A stretch of DNA of 64,000 nt from Octopus sinensis (Eukaryota). The translations under genes and the position numbers were made by a program. Where the stretch lies: contig NC_042999.1 in assembly GCF_006345805.1 (NCBI RefSeq), positions 37,138,001-37,202,000 of the forward strand. Direction: 5' to 3'. The number at the start of each line of letters is the position of its first letter. Position 1 is the first letter of the stretch. Shown piece after piece: positions 5,484 to 52,040 of this stretch. The notes beneath the pieces are model-generated. The model saw nothing but the letters and a program-made list of their open reading frames with translations, searched no databases and was not told the DNA's origin.

Positions 5484-6230
5484 ATGGAAGAGTTACTGAA
5501 AGCAGTTGTAAAACAACAAGAGCAGCAGCAACTACAGAAGTTAACAGAATTGTTACTGCAGTCGAGAAATACGACAGAATCATTTGCAGTGCAGCAGATG
5601 GTGTTGCAAATTCCTTCGAAGAATTTCACTACAATCCGGATGAAGGAACTACTTTTGCTGCATATTACAGACGATACGAAGACATTTTCCGAGAGGAATG
5701 CAAGGGATAGTCTAGTGAAAGGAAGTTAAGGCTCCTTTTGCCAAAGCTTGCTCCTCCGGAACACGAAAGTTTTTATAACTTCTATTTTGCCGAGAAAGCC
5801 CGCGGAATTGTGTTTTGATAAAACGATAAATATTTTGACTAATATTTTTAGCGAGAAAAGTTCGTAGTTTAACATTCGATGGGAATGTTTAAATTTAAAG
5901 AAAAACGAGTCCTATGATTTTGTAACATATGCCGGTATGGTTAATAAGGCTTGCGAAAGGTTTAAGCTGGAAGAATTAACGCCAGATATGTTCAAGTGAC
6001 TAATATTCGTTAAAGGGCTAGTGGCAACGGAAGACGCGGAAATTAGAAAAAAAAAAAGAATACTATCAAAGTTGAATCAAGATGTGAAACTCACTTTGCA
6101 GAAAGTGGCTGAGGAATGCCAACAAATAATAAACCTTCGAGATGATACAAGAAAGATAAAAGACAAGAATAATAATGTACAAATGTGTAAAGAAAGTACA
6201 GAAAGAAGGAAAAATTTGAATTCAAAACGG
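5484..6230 (+). pseudogene. Degenerate gag of the LTR element
   Basis: MEELLKAVVKQQEQQQLQKL..., continuing after a frameshift as EEFHYNPDEGTTFAAYYRRYEDIF; stops and frameshifts present. Confidence 0.7.
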
Positions 6231-6234
6231 CGCT

Positions 6235-7157
6235 ATGGCAGCAAAGGCGTCCCCAGTGCAGATTCAGCCGTGGCCCAAAACGGATTCGGCATGGTCTAGA
6301 CTACATATGAATTTCGCAGGACCAATAAATGGCTCTCATTATATCATTGTGGTGGATAGCTATTCCAAATGGCCTGAAGTGTGTAAATGTTCAAGGCCAA
6401 CCACAAGTGTGACTATTGACTTCTTGGAAGATCTGTTCGCTCGCTATGGAGTGCCAGATACGATCGTGTCAGATAATGGTACACAATTCACGGCGAAGGA
6501 GTTCGAAAGATTCTGTAAGTCGGTTGAGATGAAGCATGTGTTAACTCTGTCATACCATCCAAGGTCAAATGGGTTAGCGGAAAGATTCGCCGACACATTC
6601 AAGAGAGCTTTAAGAAAGACCAGACGGGAAACCCTTGAAGATACAAATATGACAAAGTTTTTGCAGGTGTATAGAATAACACCGAATCCAAATGCAGAGT
6701 CGGGTAGGTCACCCGCAGATTTGATGTTATCCAGAAAAATTCGTTCTAGTTTTGACAAATGGTTGCCGAGCAGGAAACAGAAAATAGAAAATTCGTGGGG
6801 AGGGGAACGAAAATTTTTAACACAGGTGACAAAGTGTATTTTAAAATATATAGTAACGGAAAACAGGACTGGGAATAAGGAAGTACAACTGGACGTCTGG
6901 GTAACGTGATGTACATGGTAAAAGGACCAAAATATGAACACAGAAGGCATTTTAAACCAATTTTAAAAAAAGATATACAAAAAAAAACAAGAGAGGCGAG
7001 AAGAACCAATGGATTTATGGTATGATTTGTTCGAGGTCCCAGAACCACAAGCAAAAGCAGAACCGAAATGTAGGTCGAACAAGAAGAGAAAACCTACAGA
7101 AATGATGGAAATTAATACTAAGAGAAAAATATATGCCAGTTTCTCACCGAGGAAATA
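6235..7157 (+). pseudogene. Retroviral-type integrase core (rve) of the LTR element
   Basis: WSRLHMNFAGP...IVVDSYSKWPEV...GVPDTIVSDNGTQF...YHPRSNGLAERF. The first catalytic D reads N and the C-terminus is frameshifted. Confidence 0.9.
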
Positions 7158-10399: not shown

Positions 10400-11487
10400 A
10401 GGAAGCATAATTTAGTTTCAAACTTGAGTCACGAGGAAACAGATGATTGTCAGATGGAGCCAAATTAGGAGCAGTGGGAGGGTGATCAGCCAGTTCGAAT
10501 CAACAGTCAGGCAGAGCTGTCATTGAAACCAAGGGCTTGTATGCTGGAACATTGCCCAGATGAAATATGACTCCTTTCGTTAGTTTTCCCGGGCGTTTGA
10601 TCTTGACAGCGTTTCGTAACTGCCTCAGTATGTTGGCATAGAACTCATCATTGATGGTGTGGCCTTTTTGAAGATAGTCAATAAACACAATGCCTTTTGC
10701 ATCCCAAAAATCTGAGACCATCACCTTCCCTGCAGATGAAAAGAGCTTGGCCTTCTTTGGAACAGGTGAGGAGGGGTGTTTCCACTACAGGAATTGACTC
10801 CTTGTCTCGGGCTCAAAGTGATGAAGTCAACACTCATCATGGGTTAGGACACGTTTAAGGAAACCTACTGAACCTGTTTCAAAAATGTCAGATTTTCCTG
10901 TGATGTGATCAACCCGATGCGCTTTTGATCAAGTGTCAGAAGACGTAGCACCTACCTAGCAGAGGCCTTCGTCATACAAAGTTCATTGTGCAGAATATTA
11001 TCAACTCTCTAATGGAATATGTTAATGGGATTGGCTATTTGATTTATAGTCAATCGCCTGTCATCTATCACCGTGTGGTGAACGAGATCAATGTTTTCCT
11101 CGGTGGTGGTAATTGCAGGACGTCCTGACCTTGGGTTATCTTCAAGATTTTCCCTTCCCCTTCTAAATTCAGTAGCTCATTTTTATGCTGTTGATAAAGC
11201 TAGAGTGTCATCTTCTAATGTAGCAACCATGTCAGTATGAATGTCCTTGGGAGCTAAACCATTTTTCTGCAGCTACTTGATAACAGCACAATGCCAAATT
11301 TTGTCCATTTTCAAGAGAAATCGTTTCTAGTTACTCTTGAAATTTTCTTTGAACAGTGAGATGTCAGTTTACCTGGAAAGAAACAACGCAGTTATTAATA
11401 AGAAGGGCTGAAATTAATGCATGCAAGATTTTACAAACTAACATCACTTCTTAATAGTCAGCCAATGAACTTTTGAGCCACCCTCGT
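10400..11487 (-). mobile_element. Mariner (DD34D) transposon fossil
   Basis: TIR ta|cgagggtggctcaaaagtt at ~11468-11489, ATG at 11308, motif FWDAKGIVFIDYLQKGHTIN...YANIL and LAPSDNHLF; several stops. Confidence 0.85.
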
Positions 11488-23434: not shown

Positions 23435-24210
23435 GTGTGTGTGTGTTGTTGTGGTGAAGAAAGTATTTTTTCTCAGAATATTTTGCACAATAATCTTTAA
23501 AGAAATCTGGACATCTTTCTTACTGCTAACCAGTCAACTTCAAATTACAATTGTTAATTGTTGGAAGTCAAATAGGCTGAGATGTTCATATAATGTATAG
23601 AGTGGAAGTCCAATACGAAGTTTTGAACTCATTATCTTCTGGTTAGTAATCTATTACCTTAAATTTGTAACTATTAAGTCTTTAAACATTATTTTACAGA
23701 GTTTAAGTCTTTCGACTGTCGCCATGATGAAGGTATCACTTCAAAAATTTAATCATACTGATCTCAGTACGTATTTCAATCTGGCATTTATTTTAACGAT
23801 CTCTGCTCGATGAACTTCTAAGTTTGAAACATAGTGGGACAATACTCGATTTAACAACAAATACACACACCACACACCACACACACATGCACGCGCGCAC
23901 ACACACACATTAGGTGCAAGAATGACTGTGGTTGAGAAGTTTACTTCCCAACCACTTGGTTCCACGTTCAGTCCGTCTGATTGGTACCTGAGGTATGTGT
24001 TTTCTACTATCGCCCTATATAGACTTGTGACTGAATTTTGCTAGACGGAAACTGCAGCGTTGTTCACATGAAAATGACCGAAAGACATGGTTATAAGGAA
24101 TTATTTGCTTCATACCCCTCGTGTACCGATTGTGCCCATAAGAAAGGAACAAGTAATACAATGTAGCTGTAGGGTCATAACACCCGGGCAACGTCGGGGT
24201 GCATTGCTAG
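22840..24210 (+). mobile_element. Helitron-like non-autonomous element (the two ends may not belong to one copy)
   Basis: The 5' block gagttgccgattttgacgta..ggtatcaaaagattc recurs inverted at 28780-28924. 3' hairpin cccgggcaacgtcggg followed by CTAG|T at 24210. Confidence 0.5.
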
Positions 24211-24227
24211 TGTGTGTGTGTGTGTGT

Positions 24228-24260
<33 letters not shown>

Positions 24261-24264
24261 ATAT

Positions 24265-24522
24265 ATAATATGGGTGGCTAATTCCTAATTTTACAGCTTA
24301 AACAGAGAAATGTATTCATCATTAAGTGAACAAGGGCACTAACCAGCATCAGTATTGCTAGAAATAAGAGTCAAAACAACTCAATAGCCACAAATAGCAC
24401 TATCTTAATGAGCTGACAAGGGAGACGACAAGTCCCCTACGGTCGCAGATAGAGTTACATCACCATGATTTTGCATATATATTATTATATATAATGTAAT
24501 ATATATATATAATATATATATA

Positions 24523-24576
<54 letters not shown>

Positions 24577-25695
24577 CGGCATTCAATTTTAGTTGTACGA
24601 GAGAAATTGATTGGTAAACAATGTTATGATATGTCGGTGGAGGCAGTGGTAATGATAATAATTTGTGATTATAATTGTTTACTATAGGATGTGAAAGATG
24701 GACAGTGCATGATGTTTTAAGTAAGTATTTATTTACCGTTACGTTACAAATACCTTGCCTCGACGGGTAGGCTATGATAAATCCAAAAGCATGCGAAGTA
24801 AAGTTTGTGTTTGTGTCCTCTCCATTGTTTAGTAGTAAGTACAGAGAGAGATAGAATGATGTTGTAAGAGAACAGAATTGGAGCTAGTGAGAATTGTAAG
24901 GTGTTGTCTCACAGCTGCTTTCTCCCTCTGACCAAGGTTCTAGCTGGTCAGCCAGACTTCGTTGCGTCTTCATCGACTGTGAGGAACTGATTTTTGCTTG
25001 GTATGTGCTGGCTTATATAACTATCCAGAAGGATAGATATATCATTAAAAACAATAGATTTAGTTGGTGGTCTTGTTATCTCCACTCTAGCTTTTGGTGA
25101 AGTAGAAAAGGTTAGAAAGGGTCAAGTGGTGAAGACATTAATTCGGCCTAGCTAAAGGCATCTGGAAAATATAAAACTGCTGTCAGAGAAAAACCATTGT
25201 TCCACCATGGGAACAGTTCTGTTGCAGGGTTAATTTAAATTTGGCTATGGTGGATCGAATCCATTTCATGCATGCAAGATTCACTACATATATATTTACT
25301 GGTGCAGATTAGTGTCCCTGTTCACTTTAGTGACGTATATATTTCTGTTTTCAGGTTGTAAAATTGCGAATTAGCCACCCATATTATTTATAATTCTAAT
25401 ACTACCGTTTATGAAATCAGTATATGATTTCAACGGAGATCTTATGAGCTGACAAGGCGACAAGGCAGGATGAGTTTATCCCTCGGTGCGGTGAGAGCTA
25501 CTGATGAGCATTAAGGTGCGTTAAGCACCAGAATGTGAAATCATCGGTGATCTAGTTCTATCTGTGACCGTAAGGGGGCTTGTCTCTCTTGTCAGCAGCT
25601 CATTAAGATAGTGCTTTTTGTGGCTATTGAGCAGTTTTGACTTTTATTTCTAGCAATACTGGTGCTGGTAAGTGCCCTTGCTCACTTTAGTGACG
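24265..25695. repeat. Diverged inverted/tandem repeat copies (Penelope pLTR-like arrangement)
   Basis: 24265-24475 is the reverse complement of 25300-25388 and 25535-25695. Confidence 0.6.
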
Positions 25696-34852: not shown

Positions 34853-35272
34853 GGATCTTTTCGGTTTGAACGGCAGTTTTTTCTAGCGGTGTCATATGAA
34901 ATTGTCACCGATAATTATGACCCTAGTATCGATCTATTACATTTCAATCTGTTTTAGGGTTAGGGTTAGGGGTGGGGGGAAGGGTATCTTTTTTTCTTCA
35001 CAGATGTAAATAAATCCAATCTGTTTCTTAAACGAGGGACATATTCATACGGCACAGAATGTTTTTTTTTACCTCAATAGACGTATTTGATTGGTTGAAA
35101 TTGCAGAAATTGCAGAAAAAGAACAACAAATATCTTACAAACTATAGAATTTTCTCAATAAAGCCAAGAGAAAAATATGTTTTATAAACACATTGTACCA
35201 ATATACGAAGTTTAAAATTTTTTAGTTACCTAGAAATTATGTTAAAAACTGCCGTTCAAACCGAAAAGATCC
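34853..35272. mobile_element. Merlin-like MITE with internal (TTAGGG)3
   Basis: 29-bp TIR GGATCTTTTCGGTTTGAACGGCAGTTTTT with GG termini; 8-bp TSD atgttttt at 34845-34852 and 35273-35280. Confidence 0.85.
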
Positions 35273-36108
35273 ATGTTTTTCATCATAATTAACCAACACC
35301 AAATATCAGCAGTGAATATTTCAGTTAAATGTTCGTGAGTTGCTTTATTTATTATTCATGCAGCCAACAAAAGGTATCTTCATTTACCAGCTCCCCATAG
35401 CTCCAACAAGCTACCTCTCGACAATAACATGTAGCTTTACGAATAAATCCTTTTAGTGGATATGCTCACAGAAATTTCTATAAGTTTACTTGTAAATTGG
35501 TTGTATATAGAGGAAGTTTCACCCGGAAAGAGCATGTTCATTAACGTAGCATTAATTACGAACCGGTTCTGCTATCTTTGAACATTTTGCTTCCGCTGGT
35601 GGCACCAAATGGTTAATTGAAGCAGAGATCTTATGAGGAAATATCAAATACCTAATTTGTTTTCCTAACACAATAATTATCACCAAAAGACGACGAAGGG
35701 AATTGAAGTAGCTCTAAAAGATTCAGTTTATAAAACTTCCTTCGTGCCAGACAAACTTCCTGTTTCAATTTAAAACCTATTTAGTGCACTGTAAAAACAT
35801 ATGTACGGCAGTGTTTTCGTAAACACCTACACACATCAATATATGTGTGTGAGATCATTAACCCTTAGACCTTCACTGGTTTCAGTAATTCGATTATGAT
35901 CGCGCTCCTCTTCGGTGGAGGCAATTGCATCGACCCTAATACTAATGGTATCGACCGCCATATATTTTCTGACCAACAGTAGAATGCAAGCAAAGCGGAT
36001 GCGGGCAGAATTTGAACTCAGAACTCAAAAAGAGCATCACCCAAAACAATACCGAATTTTGCCCTCTGCCATCAGTCATCATAATATTTGTGCGTGCGCG
36101 CTCCCATG

Positions 36109-37622: not shown

Positions 37623-37942
37623 CGAATTATTATTGCTATATATAATAATATAATAATATGATGATGATGATGATAATAATAATGAGGTGAGTTGGCAGAA
37701 ACGTGAGCACGCCGGCGAAATGCCTAGCGCTACGTTCTGAGTTTAAATTCCGCCGAGGTCGACTTTGCCTTTCTCCTTTCGGGGTCGAAATGATAAAGGC
37801 AAAGTCGACCTCGGCGGAATTTAAACTCAGACGTAGGCTAGCATTTCGCCCGGCGTGCTCACGTTTCTGCCAACTCACCTCATGTTATTATCATCATCAT
37901 CATCATTATTATTATTATTATTATATATAGCAATAATAATTC
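37623..37942. repeat. Fold-back of a SINE D head with its flanks
   Basis: Left and right halves are reverse complements around ~37775-37795. Confidence 0.85.
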
Positions 37943-38143
37943 TCTAAATGAGATATAGACAGTGACTGCTCCATAATATAAGGGATATTAGCCAACTGAA
38001 TATGGCTAGGGACAGGGCAGGGTGGTGGGGGTGTCACTGTTGCATTTAGCCCCAGGCGAACATCAACGTCACCAGATAGGCCGACGCCATCACGGCGTCC
38101 TCTATCTTGCAAAGGGAGATCATTCACCAAGAAGCGGATACCA

Positions 38144-38189
38144 CACACGGACCTAGGTTTCAAGGTGTATTGCCTATTATCAACGTGTG
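38144..38189 (-). ncRNA. Minimal type I hammerhead ribozyme, U3-A8 variant
   Basis: CACACG UUGAUAA U AGG CAAUACA CCU U GAAA C CUAG GUC CGUGUG: 6-bp stem I, 3-bp stem II, palindromic stem III, GUC site. Confidence 0.75.
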
Positions 38190-38499
38190 GTAGGCATCGC
38201 TTCTCGACGAACGACCAACCGTGCAAGATATATATAAAGATTTTCAAGTAAATACATTTACTGATTTCGAAAATCTGTTCGACAGCAATAATAATTCTCT
38301 AAATGAGATATAGACAGTGACTGCTCCATAATATAAGGGATATTAGCCAACTGTATATTATGGAGCAGTCACTGTCTATATCTCATTTAAAGAATTATTA
38401 TTGCTGTCGAACAGATTTTCGAAATCAGTAAATGTATTTACTTGAAAATCTTTATATATATCTTGCACGGTTGGTCGTTCGTCGAGAAGCGATGCCTAC

Positions 38500-38545
38500 C
38501 ACACGTTGATAATAGGCAATACACCTTGAAACCTAGGTCCGTGTG
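38500..38545 (+). ncRNA. Minimal type I hammerhead ribozyme, U3-A8 variant
   Basis: Identical inverted copy; predicted cleavage after C38539. Confidence 0.75.
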
Positions 38546-39253
38546 TGGTATCCGCTTCTTGGTGAATGATCTCCCTTTGCAAGATAGAGGACGCCGTGAT
38601 GGCGTCGGCCTATCTGGTGACGTTGATGTTCGCCTGGGGCTAAATGCAACAGTGACACCCCCACCACCCTGCCCTGTCCCTAGCCATATTCAGTTGGCTA
38701 ATATCCCTTATATTATATATATATATAAATTAAATTAGAGATAAAACCACTATTAGGCAAATCAAACAGTGAAAAACATAAACCAAAACATAAAAATAAA
38801 TTAATATAATATACAATTAATTAATATAATTAATATAATATACAAAATATATAAAATATAATATTTAAAATTTAAAAAATATAAAATCAAATTATCTAAA
38901 TTTAAAATTTTTGATTTATATTTATAAATTTTTATATTTTTTTATATTTTTAAAATTTAAAATTTATAAATTTTTAAACTTTATTTTTTTAATATTTATA
39001 TTTATTTATTTATTTTTCTAATATAACTATCAAAATGGTATTAAAAAGTTTAATATAATATAATAAGTAAAACCACTACGTACGTTTCATGGCCATAACC
39101 CAATTTATATTTATACTGTGAAATTTGATTTAATCCTAAATCTAATTTTTCCCTGTAAGTTTGGATTTACTTCCTAATATTATATATATATATATATTAT
39201 ATATATATATTATATATATATTATATATATATATATATTATATATATATATAT

Positions 39254-48503: not shown

Positions 48504-48905
48504 AGGAGTGGCTGTGTGGTAAGTAGCCTGCTTACGAACCACATGGTTTCGGGTTCAGTCCCACTGCGTGGAACCTTGGGCAAGTGTCTTCTACTGTAGC
48601 CTTGGGCCAACCAAAGTCTTGTGAGTGGATTTGGTAGACGGAAACTGAAAGAAGCCCGTCGTATATGTGTACATGTATGTATATGTGTATGTGTGTATGT
48701 ATGCTTGTGTGTCTGTGTTTGTCCCCCCAGCATCGCTGGACAACCGATGCTGGTGTGTTTACGTCCCCGTAACTTAGCGGCTCGGCAAAAGATACCGATG
48801 GAATAAGTACTAGGCTTACACAGAATAAGTCCTGAGGTCGATGTGCTCGACTAAAGGCGGTGCTCCCTCATGGCCACAGTCAAATGACTGAAACAAGTAA
48901 AGGAG
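48504..48905 (+). mobile_element. SINE family A
   Basis: Near full length. Confidence 0.85.
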
Positions 48906-49307
48906 TATGTGTTCATTTGTTCGAGAGGTCGACGGTCCCCCTGAACGAGGTTGGTCTTCAAGTGACAAATGATCATTCCTAAAGCGCGAAAACCATTCGT
49001 AAACTTGCGTGTAGCTCATGGCAGCGTCCTTGTAAGCTGTTTGAAGCATGACAACTGTTTCGGCCGCCGTTTTTCCCAGAAGAAAGCAGAATTTCACGGA
49101 AGCACGCTGTTCCTTCGCTTCAGCCATCGCAAAAATCGACGAAATACGAGAAAAGCACTACAAAACAAAGATGCACAACGTGGCAATACGACCTCACTCG
49201 CCAGTAGCAACTGATGCCTGAGGGCCGCATCAAGTGGCTGCTAGTGTAGAAGCCTGAACTACAACTGGCTTGTTCTACATAGAACGTTACTTTTGGGTAC
49301 CTCCTCG
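48906..49307 (-). mobile_element. Mariner 5' fragment (TIR plus HTH region)
   Basis: ta|cgaggaggtacccaaaagtaac TIR; MAEAKEQRASVKFCFLLGKTAAET...VYEWFSRF..SLEDQPRSG at 49127-48906. Confidence 0.85.
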
Positions 49308-50044: not shown

Positions 50045-50300
50045 AATTTCGGCAATTTCAACCAATCAATGACGTCCATTGAGGTAAACAACATTCTGTG
50101 CCGTATGAATATGTCCCTCGTTTAAGAAACAGATTGGGTTTATTTACATTTGTGAAGAAAAAAAGATACCCTTCCTCCCACCCCTAACCCTAACCCTAAA
50201 ACAGATTAAAATGCAATAGATCGATACTAGGGTCATAATTATGGGTGACAATTTCATATGACACCGCTAGAAAAAACTGCCGTTCAAACCGAAAAGATCC
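50045..50300 (-). mobile_element. Merlin-like MITE, truncated inverted copy
   Basis: Reverse complement of the first ~255 bp of 34853-35272. Confidence 0.85.
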
Positions 50301-50670
50301 CCGTTTTCTAATACTCGCTGTTGCCCAAAATACTCGCTGCAAGTCAAAATGAATTGGGAAATTCAAGCATAGCACACATGCTTCGTGGCTGTCTGTTGAC
50401 TTTGAAAGATAGCATCAGAACTTGGAATTAACCATGACAGTATTCAAAACTAGAAATATCACATTTCTAAATGTCTCAAAGAGACATGAGCGGTGGTGGA
50501 GCAATAGAGTGGTTGTATACTGTCAACATAACGTGACAGTCCCGTAAGGGAATTACATCACCGCTGTTTAGTCCTAGGAGGCATCGACACTTCCTGTCGG
50601 CTTTGACACATCTCCTGTGTCCTTATATTTGCGAAGGGGAGGCAAGCACCCCCACCAGGTAGGATTCACA

Positions 50671-50717
50671 CCTGAAGACATGCATGTTTCTGGGTCTTAA
50701 CCCGTCATCAGTCCAGG
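50671..50717 (-). ncRNA. Minimal type I hammerhead ribozyme, canonical core
   Basis: CCUGGA CUGAUGA C GGGU UAAG ACCC A GAAA CAUGCAU GUC UUCAGG: stem I 6 bp with one GU, stem II 4 bp, palindromic stem III, GUC site. Confidence 0.82.
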
Positions 50718-50733
50718 ATAGTGAGATCTGCTG

Positions 50734-50779
50734 CTGGGCTGATAACGGGTTAAGACCCAGAAACATGCATGTCCTCAGG
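50734..50779 (+). ncRNA. Hammerhead ribozyme copy with G8A change (probably impaired)
   Basis: CUGGG CUGAUAA C GGGU UAAG ACCC A GAAA CAUGCAU GUC CUCAG(G). Confidence 0.6.
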
Positions 50780-51218
50780 TGTGAATCCTAGCTGGTGGGG
50801 GTGCTTGCCTCCCCTTCACAAATATAAGGACACAGGAAATGTGTCGAAACCGACAGGAAGCGTCGATGCTTCCTAGGGCTAAACAGCGGTGAGGTAATTC
50901 CCTTACAGGACTGTCACGTTATGCTGACAGTATACAACCACTCTAGTATTCAAAACGTTATTGAGTTATTTGGATATTCAAAAGTTTGTGTTCGCTAGGT
51001 ACCAACACAACAGATAGACGAGCCCTGGACTGAAAGAGTTAACGAGTGCACTGAAAACCTTGAACTCAGTGAAACAAACACCTTCTTTCAAAGGGTCATA
51101 ACTGGTGACGAAACTGGATTCATCATTACGGACCACGTTGTTGATAAGCAATCTTCTGACCACACAACCACGCTAATGCTGTCCATACACATGGGCAACA
51201 GCGTGTATTAGAAAACGG

Positions 51219-51635
51219 GGATCTTTTCGGTTTGAACGGCAGTTTTTTCTAGCGGTGTCATATGAAATTGTCACCCATAATTATGACCCTAGTATCGATC
51301 TATTACATTTCAATCTGTTTTAGGGTTAGGGTTAGGGATGGGGGGAAGGGTATCTTTTTTCTTCACAAATGTAAATAAACCCAATTTGTTTCTTAAACGA
51401 GGGACATATTCATACGGCACAGAATGTTGTTTACCTCAATGGACGTCATTGATTGGTTGAAATTGCAGAAATTGCAGAAAAAAAACAACAAATATCTTAC
51501 AAACTATAGAATTTTCTCAATAAAGCCAAGAGAAAAAGATGTTTTTATAAACACATTCTACCAGTATACGAAGTTTAAAATTTTTTAGTTACCTAGAAAT
51601 TATGTTAAAAGCTGCCGTTCAAACTGAAAAGATCC
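51219..51635. mobile_element. Merlin-like MITE, full length, no matching TSD
   Basis: Both TIRs present; left flank agaaaacgg, right flank atgttttt. Confidence 0.85.
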
Positions 51636-52040
51636 ATGTTTTTCATCATAAATAACCAACACCAAATATCAGCAGTGAATATTTCAGTTAAATGTTCGTG
51701 ACAGGAAAAGACAGGAAAACTACAGGTTTTAAGCCTTTCATTGTGGAATTTTATGTGAATATATCTTGTTTATTTTGTACAGCCCGCTCCCCCAACATAA
51801 ATATACGTCGACCTGATATGTTTTATAGTTTGTTGACCACTCCTCTGAAGACAATTTGCCAACACTTTTCTGCCTACCGAAGAGAGCGCATAACAAGTTG
51901 CAATTTATATCAATAACAAACTAGAACTCAGCTATAATATTGAGGCTAATTTACGTATTTGTTGGCGGCATGATTAAATAGCAAATAAATATTTGTGCGC
52001 TACACAATGTGTATCAGAAAAGCTAAGATAAATTTAATCT

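Follow-up and report, generated by a model that had tools for sequence, protein, structure and literature searches.

A probable PLE-type insertion of two head-to-head copies of a hammerhead-bearing repeat in a decayed octopus mariner gene

[quoted passage not shown] Inverted pLTR insertions of PLEs are described with a 31-bp tail on one inverted pLTR and target-site duplications (TSDs) of 8-10 bp, mostly in head-to-head arrangement (PMC3846280), and in terms of an inverted 5'-truncated copy with a tail of 30-40 bp at one end (PMC8557442); PMC8969392 is cited alongside these two papers for the published architecture. Pairs of minimal hammerheads on opposite strands, 100-700 bp apart, and a U3-A8 variant have been reported (PMC4209133). 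A PLE protein studied in vitro cut and extended both strands; it copied uncleaved RNA, and its reverse transcription began at two RNA sites that delimit the tail (PMC11167929). Retrozymes are described as tandem type I hammerhead repeats (PMC7229834), and the non-LTR retrozymes have been argued to derive from PLE pLTRs (bioRxiv 10.64898/2026.07.22.740005). The origin of the inverted repeats of PLEs is called an unsettled question in PMC8557442, PMC3846280 and PMC11167929, and the mobilization of retrozymes by PLEs was, by its own account, considered in the 2026 preprint (bioRxiv 10.64898/2026.07.22.740005) for vertebrates only.

The window analyzed here is a 64-kb stretch of Octopus sinensis DNA, microsatellite-rich and of animal type. 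It holds, around position 50,700, a well-bounded unit of PLE type whose target duplication is backed by an interrupted mariner frame. The unit is very probably one PLE-type insertion of two head-to-head copies of the end of a high-copy, hammerhead-bearing repeat (the 50-kb family), likely made by a PLE endonuclease and reverse transcriptase (RT), in a decayed mariner gene. The attribution to PLE mobilization rests on architecture, because no open reading frame (ORF) for an RT or a GIY-YIG endonuclease is linked to the family. The family of this locus would tie invertebrate retrozymes to mobilization by PLEs. Among the papers listed by searches on octopus hammerhead ribozymes and on cephalopod retrozymes, none describes the 50-kb family, and the main text and one supplement of the O. 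vulgaris repeat paper make no mention of hammerheads.

The insert and its target

The unit and its surroundings are laid out as follows, in positions of the window.

50406..50450, plus strand: left part of the target, a decayed mariner transposase, about residues 90-104
50439..50450, no strand: left copy of the 12-bp TSD, one of two copies in the window; a single copy restores the mariner frame
50451..50504, minus strand: tail, a 54-nt 3' extension of the left copy only, outside the inverted repeat; family sequence by contig depth
50505..50716, minus strand: left arm, a family copy in minus sense, with the ribozyme motif and 172 nt downstream of its predicted cut
50717..50733, minus strand: loop of 17 nt, sequence that belongs to the left copy upstream of its arm; the 5' end of this copy is at about 50733
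50734..50945, plus strand: right arm, a family copy without tail, which begins with the 5' strand of stem I and shares its final base with the TSD
50945..50956, no strand: right copy of the 12-bp TSD, second of the two in the window, used in the mariner frame test
50945..51160, plus strand: right part of the target, decayed mariner transposase, about residues 101-173, with one in-frame stop

The insert is 494 nt long. Its inverted arms (50505-50716 and 50734-50945) are 212 nt each and differ at 14 sites, 12 of them transitions, which amounts to 93.4% identity; the loop between them occupies 50717-50733. The earlier note on this DNA had given 212-bp arms, about 93% identical by eye, around a 17-nt loop, and that description stands. 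Two features were overlooked in it: the one-sided 54-nt extension (50451-50504) belongs to the family, and the loop is part of the left copy itself, upstream of its arm. The insert is asymmetric, with a minus-sense left copy that runs from about 50733 to 50451 and a plus-sense right copy that runs from 50734 to 50945 without the last 54 nt. The left copy is an inverted, 5'-truncated copy, head-to-head with the right one, and the family extends upstream of their junction in other contigs. Symmetric terminal inverted repeats (TIRs) reaching both copies of the TSD are absent; there is the 54-nt one-sided extension instead. No ORF for an RT and GIY-YIG endonuclease is found within the 494-nt unit, which, having no ORF, is not an autonomous PLE.

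The 12-mer that flanks the insert occurs exactly twice in the 64-kb window, at 50439-50450 and 50945-50956, and a comparable repeat was met at 1 in 20,000 random position pairs. The right flank matches a mariner HMM (built from 26 full-length mariner proteins of 320-375 aa, out of 98 proteins) with E=1.3e-7. The best tblastn matches of the left flank fall at residues 90/91-104, directly upstream in the protein, with E values of 0.13-0.34 that are not significant on their own. When the insert is removed and one 12-mer is kept, the match covers HMM positions 90-173 at 28.0 bits, compared with positions 109-173 at 20.6 bits for the right flank alone, the left target part in frame adding 7.4 bits. 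Shifts by one base gave 19.8 and 21.0 bits, and none of 500 random left pieces reached 28.0 bits (maximum 24.5). Because removal of the insert restores an in-frame mariner match, the 12-mer is a true target-site duplication around the 494-nt insert, within a dead mariner transposase gene; what had earlier been noted as a TSD-like 12-bp repeat can now be called a TSD, present in just two copies in the window and tied to a restored reading frame. A protein search with the right flank gave 18 candidates, none at E<=0.001, a Pfam search of the same flank gave only a sub-threshold, unrelated match, and its only match in the PDB was Mos1 (E 0.8).

Among 15 of the 31 joints listed from public contigs there is no clean empty-site joint. 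Two joints skip the insert, 50365>50963 (run X1) and 50374>50994 (runs X1 and X8); they have undefined letters between, with sides of 21 and 33, and were left out as evidence of an empty allele. The mariner remnant is bracketed by two opposite-orientation copies of a dispersed repeat of about 500 bp (50045-50327 and 51192-51701, with a further copy at 34853-35338), which has a 36-bp internal inverted repeat and TTAGGG runs, and the pair mimics 283-bp TIRs that are 97% identical. This 283-bp inverted repeat was considered as the TIRs of the mariner piece and as a dating control, and was rejected as part of the dispersed repeat that is also found at 34853-35338. Elsewhere in the window lie a mariner DDE piece at 10500-10781 on the minus strand (Pfam Transposase_1, E=1e-18), a mariner-like N-terminus recognized by eye at 48816-49157 on the minus strand, and an integrase core at 6220-6906 on the plus strand (Pfam rve, E=2.4e-15).

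Public contigs from 4 of 24 listed runs, under three organism labels, were compared with the locus. In run X1 the summed contig depth, which is no copy count, goes from 97 to 89,362 at the left boundary of the insert and from 38,001 to 317 at the right, with a peak of 796,288, and a depth step at the insert boundaries is seen in all four runs. The family is very abundant, its 54-nt extension included. Exact-pattern scans for the family returned 0 loci in metagenome contigs and 0 in viral contigs. Loose ends at 50504, heterogeneous and AT-rich, are found in at least 17, at least 30 and at least 13 contigs in three runs; other copies of the family often end where the 54-nt extension begins. Three contig records from three runs, X1 record 6, X8 record 32 and one joint in X3, match the locus as far as 50732-50733 and then leave it, which shows that the loop is upstream sequence native to the family. 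The joint in X3 (50733>50506) is a partial-tandem, tandem-like junction without the tail: in a single contig, upstream sequence of the family is connected by 35 other letters with a second copy at its tail-less end.

The left junction of the insert is spanned by X1 record 1 with 0 other letters and the right junction by X1 record 8 with 2 other letters, X1 being possibly the assembly's own sample. X3 record 24 also crosses the right junction, with 0 differences; it reaches 29-30 letters inside, under the bar of 31 letters, and was not taken as support. Two further signals were set aside. A dip in depth over the ribozyme motif was rejected as a sign of 5' truncation, a similar dip being present at 50562-50590, where this copy diverged, and the cover of the family in run X14 was not counted as expression, the RNA nature of X14 being a guess; none of the listed runs is recorded as RNA.

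Hammerhead motifs and sister families

Both arms carry a hammerhead-like motif at the apex of the insert.

50671..50717, minus strand: hammerhead motif of the minus copy, type I minimal; core CUGAUGA at 50711-50705, 4-bp stem II, palindromic stem III, 6-bp stem I
50734..50778, plus strand: hammerhead motif of the plus copy; core CUGAUAA at 50739-50745, with A8 at 50744 and hence a C3·A8 mismatch; the closing pair of stem I is G-C

The minus copy, whose predicted cut lies between 50677 and 50676, also has GAAA and GUC. Its core has the C3-G8 pair, GAAA and UH, and the plus copy has C3·A8 instead, in line with the C3-A8 reported for it by the earlier note. Stem III is a 10-nt palindrome in both motifs. 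The same note had called the minus copy canonical, which holds for its core and palindromic stem III and does not hold for the base of stem II: in both copies this is C·A in place of G10.1-C11.1, with a G-C pair one step out. A motif scan of the window found five type I hammerhead-like sites, at 50711 (minus), 50739 (plus), 38183 (minus), 38506 (plus) and 25501 (plus), compared with a mean of 0.1 matches in 40 shuffled windows. Searched against Rfam at E<=1, the window gave 138 matches and no hammerhead family among them, and therefore the motif scan is the basis for the ribozyme call. Two other contig pieces have a hammerhead core with C at position 7, a position that is freely variable in hammerheads.

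The predicted probability of the monomer fold is 0.0009 for the minus copy and 0.010 for the plus copy, the duplex of the stem III palindromes is predicted at -13.3 kcal/mol, and the post-cleavage RNAs fold little better than shuffled ones (z of -0.6 to -2.1). The predicted monomer fold and stem III duplex would fit dimer-type PLE motifs, for which cleavage in vitro is described as poor (PMC4209133). That the G8 (minus) copy would be active as a monomer or in the context of the locus is doubtful (Cervera and de la Pena 2014). By analogy with the C3-G8 pair, of which the single mutants C3G and G8C are both reported dead (PMC11167929), the C3·A8 motif is presumably inactive. A hit in the core is expected 59% of the time among 14 substitutions, so A8 in the plus copy fits neutral decay; its reading as a designed weak partner was rejected on the same grounds. 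In any transcript only one of the two motifs is sense, and in read-through RNA of either strand about 200 mirror pairs are predicted (203 and 206 counted). Because each transcript would have a single sense motif, buried in a hairpin of about 200 bp, the locus is more likely to give rise to double-stranded RNA than to act as a pair of working ribozymes; most likely, to judge from the predicted folds, it is an inert fossil.

The other sites of the motif scan belong to two sister families.

37929..38716, no strand: sister hammerhead family (the 38-kb unit), head-to-head, with a 44-nt tail on the left copy, a 355-nt period and a U3-A8 core
25297..25695, plus strand: third hammerhead repeat family, with its core at 25501, a long stem II, a 39-nt terminal redundancy and a 360-nt period
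24210..24471, minus strand: older truncated copy of the third family, with tail, about 830 bp upstream, 74% identity

The 38-kb unit has U·U at the base of stem II, a mismatch also described there in axolotl HHR_Amex2 (PMC7229834). Its cut site lies 177 and 221 nt from the short and long ends, compared with 172 and 226 nt in the 50-kb unit, so the ribozyme does sit at the same relative position in both, as had been proposed. A distant similarity of the two bodies had been proposed as well, and it can be detected, weakly: blastn of the 50-kb against the 38-kb repeat gave no match, local alignment gave z=4.4 (1/500) with the ribozyme and z=3.4 (6/500) for the body only, and global alignment of the bodies anchored on the ribozyme gave z=3.8 and 4.0 (2/2000 for each arm), with 99 identities in 151 aligned columns, against z=-1.0 in an opposite-strand control. 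A hairpin common to the families shows two compensatory changes (columns 114-124 and 116-122), in three sequences only. The 38-kb repeat is thus a distant relative of the 50-kb family, the similarity being real but weak. The arms of the 38-kb unit are 100% complementary over 363 nt, which points either to a very recent origin or to a fold-back in the assembly. In this unit the apex is some 150-175 nt upstream of the ribozyme, and inversion at the ribozyme edge is therefore not a rule; the earlier placing of the apex at the 5' edge of a hammerhead is right for the 50-kb unit and does not extend to its relative.

Abutting the 38-kb unit, 37624-37942 is a fold-back (92.6%) of a common dispersed SINE-like repeat, and its mirror arm includes about 14-19 nt of the tail of the 38-kb unit, which suggests a larger compound inverted insertion. 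The third family, whose 25297-25695 copy has one end at a CA microsatellite, aligns weakly with the 50-kb body (z=3.1; 6/2000) and does not align with the 38-kb body (z=-0.9). Both sister families have circularly permuted periods, of 355 and 360 nt, and no ORF.

How the inverted pair may have arisen

The earlier note saw the unit as inserted in one piece, as a fold-back. A single insertion event is supported by the TSD and the mariner frame; a fold-back on a single template is less well supported, the tail being one-sided, the loop made of family sequence and the stem I pair different between the arms. The note gave no class for the unit, which matches the inverted-pLTR-plus-tail insertions published for PLEs. 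Both arms include the part of the ribozyme upstream of the cut site, and the template was therefore not a cleaved linear RNA.

A fuller reading, which we put forward as possible rather than probable, is twin target-primed reverse transcription: a PLE dimer would nick the target 12 nt apart and copy two separate uncleaved retrozyme RNAs, one per RT start site, and the cDNAs would meet at the 5' edge of the ribozyme, with related families of about 355 nt keeping the spacing between ribozyme and start site. Step by step, the PLE enzyme would nick both target strands; the 3' end of the top strand would prime a cDNA at the tail end of the RNA, giving the left copy; a second copy, the right one, would be started internally, where the tail begins; and both cDNAs would stop just upstream of the uncleaved ribozyme and be joined head-to-head. 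In a read-through transcript the resulting hairpin is predicted to sequester the single sense ribozyme. If true, twin priming would be direct insertion-level evidence for the movement of retrozymes by PLE machinery, and a genome-wide comparison of arm variants would test the origin of the inverted repeats of PLEs.

As to its parts, priming from both nicks on two RNAs is mildly favored over fold-back copying of a single cDNA. The latter is a serious rival, belonging to the same class of insertion and differing in one step: a single cDNA would fold back at its 3' end near the 5' edge of the ribozyme and self-prime the second arm. We regard it as possible rather than probable. The two arms share minority variants, for example at 50558/50892, where about 89-100% of the family depth differs, and this, together with the short loop and the identical arms of the 38-kb unit, counts in favor of self-priming, which has also been proposed for palindromic PLE junctions (PMC3846280). 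By itself, however, self-priming does not account for the end of the second arm, which coincides with the recurrent tail boundary of the family, and the junction has no clear microhomology, a CTG trimer being present twice in the sequence and not shared. The closing pair of stem I is moreover A-U in the left arm and G-C in the right (p=0.021 under random substitution, in a post hoc test), a compensatory difference that hints at two RNA templates. With a family this abundant, arm-versus-arm comparison could separate fold-back from two-template priming.

The template itself is on balance likely to have been a non-autonomous, retrozyme-type RNA of about 350 nt rather than a full-length PLE end, a choice made because of the periods of the sister families and the lack of an open frame. 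The other view, in which an autonomous, protein-coding PLE supplied the arms as 5'-truncated pLTR ends, is plausible and still not the one we would expect. It draws on the architecture, which is that of autonomous PLE insertions, and on the continuation of the family upstream of 50733. Stops interrupt the left copy in each of its three sense frames, although decay could have caused these, and the two sister families with 355- and 360-nt circularly permuted periods and no ORF are against it.

Readings outside this class of insertion are far less likely. Two independent, adjacent insertions of the repeat, or a later fold-back duplication at the DNA level, are improbable: the family is very abundant and other fold-backs exist in the window (37624-37942), but a single 12-bp TSD brackets both copies exactly, its reduction to one copy restores the frame, and the apex is without a second TSD. 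A MITE or fold-back DNA transposon, its long TIRs carrying chance hammerhead-like motifs, is very unlikely; it would fit long inverted arms with a TSD, but one end is 54 nt longer than the other, 50504 is where many family copies stop, and the ribozyme motifs are far above chance. Least credible is a chimeric fold-back read in the assembly, which the earlier note had already argued against: none of the contigs listed spans the apex, but there are 14 differences between the arms, short-read contigs contain both junctions, and the TSD and the target frame are those of a real insertion.

Comparison with known systems

The EN+ PLE insertions Pen2a and Pen3a of Adineta vaga (PMC3846280; overview in PMC8557442) have, like the locus, a head-to-head inverted copy, a 3' tail on one copy, a TSD of about 10 bp, 5' truncation and a hammerhead in the terminal repeat. 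In contrast to them, the locus has no ORF or direct pLTR between its arms, and its tail is longer (54 nt). Set against the values published for PLEs, 30-40 nt for the tail and 8-10 bp for the TSD, both the 54-nt tail and the 12-bp TSD are somewhat longer.

Animal non-LTR retrozymes resemble the locus in having a type I hammerhead with a palindromic stem III within a non-coding, high-copy repeat (PMC7229834; bioRxiv 10.64898/2026.07.22.740005), and the 355-360-nt periods of the sister families are like theirs. Whereas non-LTR retrozymes are tandem monomers of 150-450 bp with a hammerhead in each, the locus holds an inverted pair of partial copies and no tandem monomer.

The minimal hammerheads of PLEs, in the account of PMC4209133, share with the locus a conserved core, a short stem I, a palindromic helix III of the kind that lends itself to dimers, and the arrangement as opposite-strand pairs, and their U3-A8 variant is matched in the 38-kb family. 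They differ at the base of stem II, where an extra A before GAAA gives C·A here (U·U in the 38-kb unit) instead of a bulge plus G10.1-C11.1. Poseidon PAc of Anolis (PMC11167929) fits the locus in its two RT start sites bounding the tail, its nicking and extension of both strands, its uncleaved template and its AT-rich targets. The ORF of PAc starts at stem II, whereas the ATG in the core of the present motif is followed by a stop within 3 codons.

The unit has all the structural marks of a PLE-type (EN+) insertion that we examined, the hammerhead being present at the level of the motif only. The locus is a clean instance of a kind already known and does not represent a new ribozyme system.
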